64,000 bases of DNA, taken from NCBI GenBank assembly GCA_028716745.1, contig JAQUPE010000001.1, forward strand, positions 30,203 to 94,202. The letters are read 5' to 3'. How positions within the stretch are numbered: the stretch's first letter is position 1; every line of letters begins with the position of its first letter. A program made the translations under genes and the position numbers. The DNA is from Minisyncoccota bacterium. Its GTDB lineage: Bacteria; Patescibacteriota; Minisyncoccia; UBA6257; 02-FULL-45-10c. Below, in pieces: positions 44,343-45,533 of the stretch. The notes under the pieces are model-generated. The model saw only the letters and a program-made list of their open reading frames with translations. It was not told the DNA's origin and searched no databases.

Positions 44343-44411
44343 CAAAATGGCTATTAGCTAAGAGAAGTTTGTTTTTTGCAAATTGAATAAGAAAATATAG
44401 GAGGTGATTGT

Positions 44412-44507
44412 ATGAACAAAGGCAGAAGCTTTGCTAGTGATGAAAGCGGATGCTGTGGTCACGGAGGCGTCGGGAGTGGAATAACGCCGAACATCAAAAG
44501 GGGGTGA
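44412..44507 (+). CDS. micro-ORF: 31-aa peptide MNKGRSFASDESGCCGHGGVGSGITPNIKRG
   Basis: Perfect SD ataggaggtgattgtATG; paralog of the 17-aa peptide at 44632 (shared M-x-K-x-R-x-[FY]-x-x-D-x-x-G-C-C-G). Confidence 0.4.
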   Translation: MNKGRSFASDESGCCGHGGVGSGITPNIKRG

Positions 44508-44631
44508 TCAAACTATCTGAAATATAAGGGAGGTGGTGTGATATATGTTTGTACCAGCGACTTAGGGTGTTTGAATCGGAATCATTCTCAAAAATTCTGA
44601 ATATCAATAAAGAAAGGAGGTGATTGATTAC

Positions 44632-44685
44632 ATGAAGAAGTCCAGAGGATATCACGATGACGGTGGAGGATGCTGCGGGCCCTAG
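44632..44685 (+). CDS. micro-ORF: 17-aa peptide MKKSRGYHDDGGGCCGP
   Basis: SD aaaggaggtgattgattacATG; paralogous to 44412. Confidence 0.4.
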   Translation: MKKSRGYHDDGGGCCGP

Positions 44686-44785
44686 GTCGAAAGACGAAAG
44701 GTCCTGAGAAGATCCGAATGAATCGAGGAGTTCCAATTTTTTGGAGGACGGGAATGCTCCTCCCGTCCTTCCGGAATTATACTTT

Positions 44786-44816
44786 GCCAGCCTTTACGAG
44801 GGCTGGCATTTTTTTA
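44786..44816 (+). terminator. rho-independent terminator
   Basis: gccagcc-tttacgag-ggctggc + T7. Confidence 0.6.
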
Positions 44817-44891
44817 TTTATTAATATAAGCTACAGAAATCTGTTTTTTGACTTTGTAATAATGAAATTATTCCGAGAGAGGAGGTGAAAT

Positions 44892-45533
44892 ATGGGTTCG
44901 GAAAGGCGCTGTTTATTGTGTAATGGCAAACTTGAGACAGGCGCAAAGGATTACGTTTGTTCCAAGTGCGGCCAGCGGTATGACATAACGGAGTATGTAG
45001 AAGCGAGCCTTGATGAAGAGGTAAAGAAAAATTACATCAGGGAGCTGAAGAAACAAAGAAAGGCCACGGAAGCAGAGGAGAAGAAAAAAGCGAAAGAAGG
45101 GATGGGTCAGCAGAAAGAAACGGAAAAAGTGGCGGAAAATAATCTGCCGGAAAAAAAGGAAAAGGAGGAAGTGAAAGTTATGGCAAAGAAAAAGGAAGTT
45201 TGCATAATCTGTGACGAGAAGAAGATCATAATAGCGAAGGGCTGCTGCGCTGCGGACTACACGCTGCTTAACAAAATGGGCGGCGATGTAGAAAAAGCCA
45301 AAGCGTACCGCCTGGAAAATCCCATCGGGAAGAAGGGACGCAAGGCGGTCAAGACGGCGGGAGAACAACATCCTCCGTTGCCGCCGCATCACTCCCATCC
45401 GCCCGCGCCGGAAACACCGCCTGCATTCTCGATCGTTGCCAGCGTTAAAACAATGACGGTCCAGGTGGAGTACAAGATGAACGTCGGGGAAGCGAAAATG
45501 GAAACAAAGATCCTCGGTGTGAAGATAGAGTAG
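44892..45533 (+). CDS. zinc-ribbon protein with Lys/Glu-rich linker and His/Pro-rich segment, hypothetical (higher G+C)
   Basis: CLLCNG..CSKCGQ N-terminal zinc ribbon; second Cys cluster VCIICDEKK..KGCCAAD; SD gagaggaggtgaaatATG. Confidence 0.5.
   Translation: MGSERRCLLCNGKLETGAKDYVCSKCGQRYDITEYVEASLDEEVKKNYIRELKKQRKATEAEEKKKAKEGMGQQKETEKVAENNLPEKKEKEEVKVMAKKKEVCIICDEKKIIIAKGCCAADYTLLNKMGGDVEKAKAYRLENPIGKKGRKAVKTAGEQHPPLPPHHSHPPAPETPPAFSIVASVKTMTVQVEYKMNVGEAKMETKILGVKIE

Follow-up and report, generated by a model that had tools for sequence, protein, structure and literature searches.

The stretch of DNA considered here, 64,000 nucleotides of the forward strand of contig JAQUPE010000001.1 (assembly GCA_028716745.1, positions 30,203 to 94,202; hereafter the window), belongs to a metagenome-assembled genome (MAG) of Candidatus Pacebacteria, in the Patescibacteria. 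Between a tRNA-Lys gene and a GDSL-lipase gene, it carries a cassette of ~1.9 kb in which very small open reading frames (micro-ORFs) encode peptides sharing a Gly-Cys-Cys-Gly (GCCG) motif. As far as their sequences tell, these peptides are a real small family, unmatched to anything described in the searches made here. It may be proposed, with about an even chance of being right, that the micro-ORFs are translated as Cys-Cys micro-proteins of a mobile-element-derived cassette, rich in Shine-Dalgarno (SD) sequences and located at a variable tRNA-Lys site. The genes follow each other in the order GCCG ORF(s), mini-ORF, terminator, zinc-ribbon protein and DUF218-like protein. An earlier, sequence-only reading of this DNA had pointed to the GCCG micro-ORFs, a 6-codon ORF, four strong SDs, a terminator and a gene for a 213-aa zinc-ribbon protein, and all of them are found where it had placed them. 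Its statement that no described family corresponds to this pattern agrees with our searches. It had not noticed that this cassette, with its many SDs and raised G+C content, is inserted at a tRNA-Lys site whose occupancy varies.

The GCCG micro-ORFs

Micro-ORF1, present in the ORF list at 44412..44507 (+), encodes 31 amino acids, MNKGRSFASDESGCCGHGGVGSGITPNIKRG. Micro-ORF2 (44632..44685, +) encodes 17 amino acids, MKKSRGYHDDGGGCCGP. The two peptides can be aligned without gaps as M-x-K-x-R-x-[FY]-x-x-D-x-x-G-C-C-G. When the alignment is anchored at the N-terminus, the BLOSUM62 score is 48 over 17 residues, versus a mean of -10.1 with a standard deviation of 8.7 for the null derived from 501 small ATG ORFs of the window. 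The next best score, among 685 neighbouring ORF pairs, is 29. Since the score stands so far above the null, the observation is real and not due to chance, and the two micro-ORFs are indeed paralogues, as had been claimed.

Syntenic contigs were located through the flanking CorA gene. One of them, L004, comes from the same sample (SRR22315506) but from a different Pacebacteria MAG and species, its CorA and GDSL proteins being 63% and 52% identical to those of the window. The same cassette is found there at the same tRNA-Lys. It starts with an SD and a GTG-initiated ORF of 29 amino acids, MKKSRGYRDGGDGGCCGRGGQASTTGAGR (beginning with MKKSRGYRDGGDGGCCGRGG...), of which micro-ORF1 is the positional orthologue. 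An SD-like block, a 20-nt block with a mini-ORF, a strong terminator, a 221-aa homologue of the zinc-ribbon protein and two DUF218 paralogues come next. A second GCCG ORF was not found in L004, so that micro-ORF2 is an extra paralogue present in the window only. The sequence-only reading had held that conservation of nothing but SD-like motifs in homologous loci would speak against it; the GCCG ORF itself is kept in L004.

With this third copy, the family may be described as hydrophilic, Gly-rich peptides of 17-31 amino acids with the core M-[KN]-K-[SG]-R-[GS]-[YF]-x-x-[DG]-x(2,3)-G-C-C-G-(x-G-G). Its presence in a second species suggests, at the level of sequence comparison, that the peptide frame is kept by selection. 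The L004 peptide and that of micro-ORF2 share the N-terminus MKKSRGY, whose serine is encoded by AGC in one and by TCC in the other. The start codon varies between ATG and GTG, the latter in L004, and the sole indel is one codon (3 nt, in frame). For the core, the proportions of nonsynonymous and synonymous differences (pN/pS) are 0.21/0.49 between micro-ORF2 and L004, 0.32/0.55 between micro-ORF1 and L004 and 0.35/0.70 between the two window copies. Identity reaches 8/12 in frame 0, as compared with 4/11 and 5/11 in frames 1 and 2, both of which contain stops. Taken together, these coding features favour a translated small ORF in a way that is suggestive rather than decisive.

The possibility that the region is one structured non-coding RNA, also named beforehand as unfavourable to the peptides, is not supported by the folds. 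The ORF region folds like shuffled sequence (z = -0.03 and +2.08), which weighs against such an RNA, and Rfam gives no match in the window or L004 locus beyond the tRNA. The 3′ part containing the hairpin and the terminator (44686-44830) is more stable than its shuffles (z = -3.6).

The translation signals of the cassette are unusual. Micro-ORF1 is preceded by SD1, AGGAGGTGAT (44399..44408, +), where 10 nt can pair with the 3′ end of 16S rRNA, 3 nt before the ATG. Micro-ORF2 is preceded by SD3, AAGGAGGTGAT (44614..44624, +), which with 11 nt is the strongest SD of the window. The SDs of the micro-ORFs are thus 10-11 nt long and lie 3-7 nt upstream of the starts. For the island as a whole, the starts show 7-11 nt of SD complementarity, as scored against a consensus bacterial 16S 3′ end that may not be the host's own. 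In a census of 71 proxy genes of the 64-kb window, complementarity never goes beyond 7 nt outside the island, and an SD match is lacking in 34-47 of the 71 (roughly half to two thirds), the host genome being SD-poor. The heptamer GGAGGTG occurs nine times in 64 kb versus 3.2 expected, and five of these nine are inside the 1.8 kb from 44400 to 46175. L004 displays the same deviant pattern, with four out of four GGAGGTG inside the island. From the tRNA to about 46240, the G+C content is 0.40-0.54, versus 0.33-0.37 in the flanks. Translation signals thus distinguish the island no less than its G+C content does. The cassette bears marks of a foreign origin, probably from a phage or a mobile element.

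So far, the GCCG family is confined to two MAGs. A strict back-translated pattern gave no match in viral, genome and metagenome collections, but it was too strict, since it missed the L004 copy with its GTG start and one extra codon. A relaxed pattern recovers the three known copies. Its 90 metagenomic matches include 67 with a 17-nt out-of-frame gap and 14 with a 16-nt gap; many are one repeated sequence, largely from human-gut assemblies. The nine in-frame matches have no SD, and all 90 were judged to be due to chance. The best-looking match (L055, identical to the viral contig L112) overlaps, in another frame, the start of a 187-aa phage gene, and the sole viral match of the relaxed pattern is this same phage sequence. 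Phage and plasmid records yielded nothing. No cassette was seen around the DUF218 homologues of seven contigs (L008-L014), and two relatives of CorA in the genome collection (L002 and L003, 47-48% identical) are not syntenic. It should be kept in mind that pattern scans are insensitive and that short ORFs are missing from protein databases.

Several other ORFs of the region were considered and rejected. Antisense ORFs (44494-44736 on the minus strand of the window, 6496-6702 on the plus strand of L004) are not collinear, and the 'HISHHLP' that they share is the reverse complement of the 20-nt block. The +1-frame ORFs starting from an ATG inside GGATGCTG have no SD and no conserved length. A 72-aa ORF (44670-44888, +), which starts at an ATG inside GGATGCTGCGG of micro-ORF2, continues across the terminator and ends within the SD of the zinc-ribbon gene, has no SD, is not conserved in L004 and is probably spurious. 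Read-through of the TGA of micro-ORF1 would give unrelated sequences in the two loci. Finally, the three micro-ORFs of the window differ in frame and each have an SD and a start of their own, which argues against pseudogene pieces of one larger gene.

The tRNA-Lys site and the zinc-ribbon protein

The left boundary of the island is the tRNA-Lys(UUU) gene (44272..44343, +; identified by ARAGORN, 75 bits with Rfam). Its right boundary is the bidirectional terminator that follows the GDSL-lipase gene (46243..46258), equivalent to the hairpin found directly 3′ of tRNA-Lys at empty sites. Comparison of the syntenic loci reveals a conserved backbone, DnaK-...-DnaJ-GDSL-[site]-tRNA-Lys-CorA-CysRS-DnaB-RecR. 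Both the window and L004 carry an insertion there. In three further related lineages the site is empty; in L006, L007 and L108-110, the GDSL terminator abuts the tRNA. In one of these lineages (L111:4590-4790 (-), GCA_030646555.1 JAUSKP010000010.1), tRNA-Lys is followed, after ~110 nt, by a direct repeat of its 3′ end, ttccatgtgggggcacaat. This repeat is a scar resembling an attachment (att) site, and it suggests the use of tRNA-Lys by integrative elements in the clade. Within this clade, the site is variable and prone to integration.

Downstream of micro-ORF2, a stable hairpin (GGAGGACGGGA...TCCCGTCCTTCC, about 44741..44774, +) lies upstream of an intrinsic terminator (44785..44816, +), made of a 10-bp stem (44785-44808) and a run of seven T extending to 44816, which closes the micro-ORF transcript. 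SD4, AGGAGGTGA (44880..44888, +), then serves the gene of the zinc-ribbon protein (44892..45533, +; 213 amino acids), whose sequence displays CxxC...CxxC and CIIC...GCC. Two opposed terminator hairpins (45561..45616) separate it from the convergent DUF218-like gene (45625..46158, -; 177 amino acids), the last gene of the island, which has GGAGGTGA as its SD at 46168-46175. The motif (A)TCTGTTTTTTG(A/C) is repeated at 44363-44396 and 44835-44868, upstream of the SDs of micro-ORF1 and of the zinc-ribbon gene, and is also kept upstream of the peptide SD of L004. A weak terminator tail and a promoter element are both conceivable.

The zinc-ribbon protein is annotated as a hypothetical protein of the MAG, and a word-indexed search finds only itself. 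An exhaustive HMMER search gave three real relatives (P0131, P0146 and P0176), the other matches being generic repeated zinc ribbons, so that the family comprises four known cluster representatives. The homologue in L004 is 51% identical to the window protein over the C-terminal half. Seven cysteines are invariant in the four-sequence alignment: C7, C10, C23, C26, C104, C107 and C119. The first four form an N-terminal C4 ribbon, CxxC-x12-CxxC, whose two CxxC are thus present in 4/4 sequences. A second site is made of C104, C107 and C119, plus C118. The sequence-only reading had seen in this second site the same GCC motif as in the peptides. However, C118, the first Cys of the pair, is not conserved across the family: it is a His in P0146, and the place of CCAAD in the window protein is taken by CSSC in P0146 and by CGSC in P0176. 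Because only the second Cys is invariant and two homologues have a CxxC, the Cys-Cys of this protein is a variant zinc knuckle and not a copy of the peptide motif. An AlphaFold2 model has a predicted local distance difference test (pLDDT) score of 59 overall and is confident only in the N-terminal ribbon (about 80-86) and in a long helix. Foldseek and PDB profile searches returned generic zinc ribbons only, and all Pfam and PHROG matches were sub-threshold.

P0176, a distant homologue (L016:1340-1786, also in L017), lies inside a run of overlapping small genes, followed by a gene for a 148-aa protein matching phrog_503 (E = 4e-32), which links the zinc-ribbon family to phage-like elements. No GCCG ORF was found in this context in L016 and L017, and searching the viral contigs with the alignment of the zinc-ribbon family gave nothing, nor did blastn and tblastn searches of phage and plasmid records for the zinc-ribbon protein. 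P0146 is encoded on a contig of 695 nt (L015, GCA_044240345.1 JAZHCG011566614.1). Its start (L015:1-72) reads ...CTGGCATTTTTTG, with 12 nt in common with the tail of the window terminator, followed by a GGAGGTG SD. The contig ends before any upstream micro-ORF could appear. The layout terminator, SD, zinc-ribbon gene thus probably exists in a third lineage, as judged from this short contig. The DUF218-like protein of the island, for its part, is 54% identical to P0003 (L008:7001-7591), a homologue from Patescibacteria encoded in an unrelated chromosomal context, versus 42% identical to the L004 island copy. Since it is nearer to P0003, the island genes may lack one shared history.

Elsewhere in the window, the large ORFs are housekeeping genes according to Pfam (ligase, GatA-type amidase, PheT, penicillin-binding protein, Mur ligase, SecD and Asd). 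At 60265-61800 (+), ~15 kb from the cassette, a 511-aa protein resembles the TraG/VirD4 coupling proteins of type IV secretion systems (TrwB_AAD_bind, T4SS-DNA_transf). Two large ORFs have no Pfam match at E <= 1e-5: one of 585 amino acids (2684-4441, +) and one of 353 amino acids (47976-49037, -), the latter having a conserved position between the DnaK and DnaJ genes in every related locus.

Proposed translation of the peptides and competing explanations

If the micro-ORFs are translated, the following scheme may be envisaged. A short mRNA, either co-transcribed with tRNA-Lys or begun just after it, would stop at the intrinsic terminator. The SDs of 10-11 nt would drive very efficient initiation of the micro-ORFs in a host where most genes have no SD. 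The resulting peptide would be a flexible, Gly-rich chain displaying the thiols of a vicinal Cys-Cys pair, with Asp, Glu or His next to it. As such, it would most likely act as a thiol-based metal-binding or redox micro-protein, perhaps in connection with the co-inherited zinc-ribbon protein.

Several observations weigh against this scheme. The pN/pS values are based on 16-18 codons in three copies and are statistically not decisive, and the tail following GCCG-x-GG evolves neutrally (pN/pS about 1). The three ORF copies come from only two MAGs and one sample, gene callers skipped the micro-ORFs, and the back-translated scans of the genome, metagenome and viral collections brought no further member. 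On the side of mobility, no att repeat (tRNA 3′ end, up to 3 mismatches) was detected at the window or L004 island and neither locus encodes an integrase or recombinase between tRNA-Lys and GDSL. The G+C content of the island (0.48-0.49) is just about 2 standard deviations above the gene mean. A metal or redox role would be the most likely one for the peptides, but it is deduced purely from their composition. Finally, part of the conservation is at the nucleotide level: GGATGCTG is identical in the three copies, a 20-nt block is shared and a 62-nt spacing is exact. This hints at a role in RNA or translational control in addition to a coding one.

When the window and L004 are aligned, similarity is at about chance level in the non-coding parts, and five kinds of block rise above it: the SDs, the start and core of the ORF, GGATGCTGYGGNCNCGGAGGC, RGGRGGTGATC together with TATCT, and the 20-mer GGGAGGTGGTGTGATATATG. 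Since the surrounding intergenic sequence is at chance level, these blocks appear to be under constraint. In the window, the SD-like block AAGGGGGTGATC (44498..44509, +) overlaps the stop of micro-ORF1 and has no start codon at SD spacing. The SD-like block of L004, AAGGAGGTGATC (~6579-6590, -), is a 12-nt perfect match to the anti-SD. The 20-mer (44528..44547, +; ~6543-6562, -, in L004) is made up of SD2 and the mini-ORF start codon with the spacer between them. It is identical in the two loci despite 63% identity for CorA, occurs once in the window and is absent from viral contigs. The mini-ORF itself, preceded by GGGAGGTG, has six codons in the window (MFVPAT*, 44545..44565, +) and encodes MID* in L004. 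These peptides are unrelated, so that only the initiation region is conserved. In both loci, GGATGC and GGTGATC are exactly 62 nt apart though the middle 30 nt are ~30% identical. The 20-mer, the startless SD-like block and this spacing go beyond a simple small-protein reading.

In view of these features, one alternative, which we consider improbable, would be that the micro-ORFs act in cis as sensors through their cysteine (or Gly/Cys) codons, by analogy with the polycysteine short ORFs (sORFs) of mycobacteria, the peptide being a by-product. All copies have two consecutive Cys codons (TGC TGT or TGC TGC), and in mycobacteria two such codons in a row are enough (Canestrari et al., bioRxiv 10.1101/834739). 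Ribosomes at the Cys codons would open a stem between GGAUG (44448-44452, in the Gly-Cys codons) and UAUCU, the conserved TATCT block (44514..44518, +) being the candidate 3′ arm of this long-range pairing. Access to the downstream SD-like elements and to the start of the mini-ORF would thereby change, and with it the efficiency with which the transcript is translated, its stability or its read-through towards the zinc-ribbon gene. The nucleotide identity of GGATGCTG, the exact spacing, the perfectly kept initiation region in front of an unconserved peptide and the terminator located between the ORFs and the zinc-ribbon gene in both loci are all in favour of this idea. So is the stem, proposed by RNAalifold, with 9 pairs in both loci and 3 compensatory changes. 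This stem keeps the translational-sensor idea alive. However, it is weak, with two G-U pairs in a 6-pair helix, and 67 of 500 shuffles do as well, with two sequences only; the region as a whole folds no better than shuffles. Furthermore, conservation extends to residues other than the two Cys (MKKSRGY, D), even across the switch of Ser codon family, the ORFs are led by SDs rather than leaderless, and the downstream gene has no link with cysteine metabolism. As to a classical terminator/antiterminator switch governed by leader peptides, suggested in the sequence-only reading, it does not fit the two loci. The distance from the ORF stop to the terminator is ~100 nt for micro-ORF2 of the window and ~220 nt in L004, where micro-ORF2 is absent. 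No antiterminator pairing was evident by eye in the sequence and folds, no dedicated search having been made.

A second alternative would be that the micro-ORFs are functionless leftovers of a decaying mobile element, their similarity reflecting duplication, shared descent or recent transfer between co-resident species. The origin of both MAGs from one sample is consistent with this view, as are a foreign-looking island devoid of integrase and att sites, a micro-ORF2 that is truncated and missing from L004, and the failure to find further members. In addition, the mini-ORF and the L004 peptide ORF have similar initiation regions, as would be expected if the former were a decayed duplicate. However, the island proteins (51% identity over half length for the zinc-ribbon protein, 42% for DUF218) are diverged at least as much as the core flanks (63% for CorA, 52% for GDSL), so that transfer between the co-resident species was not recent. 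Moreover, the ORF start, the frame, the core residues and the SDs persist while the neighbouring non-coding DNA is randomised. Such persistence of the frame beside randomised DNA is hard to reconcile with mere remnants, and we hold this explanation to be unlikely.

It may also be imagined, with less likelihood still, that the two kinds of conservation reflect a dual role. In this case, the micro-ORFs would represent a mobile, undescribed class of Cys-Cys micro-proteins of Patescibacteria or their phages. The peptide would act as a thiol or metal effector together with the zinc-ribbon protein, whereas the Cys codons, the UAUCU block and the 20-nt site would sense cysteine or charged tRNA-Cys. 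Such sensing would matter in an organism that is probably dependent on a host for its amino acids.

Lastly, precursors of ribosomally synthesized and post-translationally modified peptides (RiPPs), for instance linear azole-containing peptides (LAPs) with modifying enzymes encoded elsewhere in the genome, are evoked by the Gly/Cys/Ser/Thr-rich cores GGDGGCCGRGGQASTTGAGR and SGCCGHGGVGSGITPN, which recall those of microcin B17 and streptolysin S, and by the tandem paralogous copies with strong SDs. This explanation, already raised in the sequence-only reading, is very improbable. Pfam reveals neither a maturase (YcaO, radical-SAM, lanthipeptide, MNIO or other) nor a transporter or immunity gene in the island or in the ten large ORFs of the window. 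Precomputed Pfam matches for the genes called in the 14.8-kb L004 locus show none of them either, several of these genes having no recorded hit. The 12-14 residues before the Cys pair fall short of the typical recognition leader of at least 15-20 amino acids, micro-ORF2 ends two residues past the Cys pair, and the tail is unconserved.

Comparison with known systems

Translation as Cys-Cys micro-proteins remains the reading that we prefer, at the even chance given above. A candidate micro-protein family is present in two species, with an unusual vicinal-cysteine core and exceptionally strong SDs in a mostly SD-less genome. Small ORFs are systematically missed in genomes of the candidate phyla radiation. 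If the peptides are made, they would give access to functions of Patescibacteria that are accessory or derived from phages. Should the Cys codons act as a sensor, cysteine-responsive control by short ORFs would extend beyond mycobacteria. With only three copies in two genomes, the significance is moderate, and the present results do not yet show a new mechanism.

Among the systems to which the cassette may be compared, the precursors of LAPs and thiazole/oxazole-modified microcins (TOMMs), such as McbA of microcin B17 and SagA of streptolysin S, are likewise small Gly/Cys/Ser/Thr-rich peptides with adjacent Cys and tandem copies. In contrast to them, the GCCG peptides have no long leader, only two Cys and an unconserved tail, and their genes are not accompanied by an adjacent cyclodehydratase, dehydrogenase or YcaO gene or by an exporter. 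In the classical attenuators of the trp, his, leu and thr type, too, a gene is preceded by a short ORF carrying repeated codons for a single amino acid, and then by hairpins and an intrinsic terminator. Here, however, the hairpins are independent in both minimum free energy and centroid folds rather than forming mutually exclusive terminator and antiterminator structures, the downstream gene is not biosynthetic and micro-ORF2 is missing in the second species.

The mycobacterial polycysteine sORFs (10.1101/834739) are cysteine-responsive attenuators. They too are short ORFs that lack annotation and precede another gene, contain two or more Cys codons in a row and have some conserved non-Cys residues. 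Pausing of ribosomes on them remodels mRNA pairing near the downstream ribosome-binding site, for which a comparable candidate stem exists here. But the mycobacterial sORFs are leaderless, whereas the micro-ORFs of the cassette, judged from sequence, are not and have strong SDs. They precede genes of cysteine or sulfur metabolism, whereas here a zinc-ribbon gene is found behind a strong terminator, followed by a convergent DUF218-like gene. Furthermore, the Cys pair is C-terminal in micro-ORF2 only, there is no sequence homology, and the host is a Patescibacterium and not an actinobacterium.

As regards the zinc-ribbon protein, its N-terminal ribbon is like those of Zn_ribbon_6, DZR_2, A2L_zn_ribbon and the TFIIB-type ribbons, and the weak, sub-threshold matches in Pfam and PDB are all ribbons. 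At curated cut-offs, it matches none of the known zinc ribbons, and its conserved C-terminal module, CxxC-x10-(C)CxxC/D ... ENPIGKK ... β-hairpin, is without described relative.

The setting as a whole may be compared with the small accessory islands or prophage remnants that are integrated at tRNA genes and carry genes of the 'moron' type. No recognisable phage structural or replication gene is present here, the island is merely about 1.9-2.5 kb long, and its two occupied loci differ from such elements in having neither integrase nor att repeats. The resemblance lies in the position directly 3′ of a tRNA, the patchy presence among relatives, the deviant G+C content and translation signals, the occurrence of the zinc-ribbon family beside a phage-family gene and the att-like duplication of the tRNA 3′ end in one relative. 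The micro-ORFs are thus a new, very narrowly distributed small-ORF family in an already known setting, that of the accessory island at a tRNA gene.

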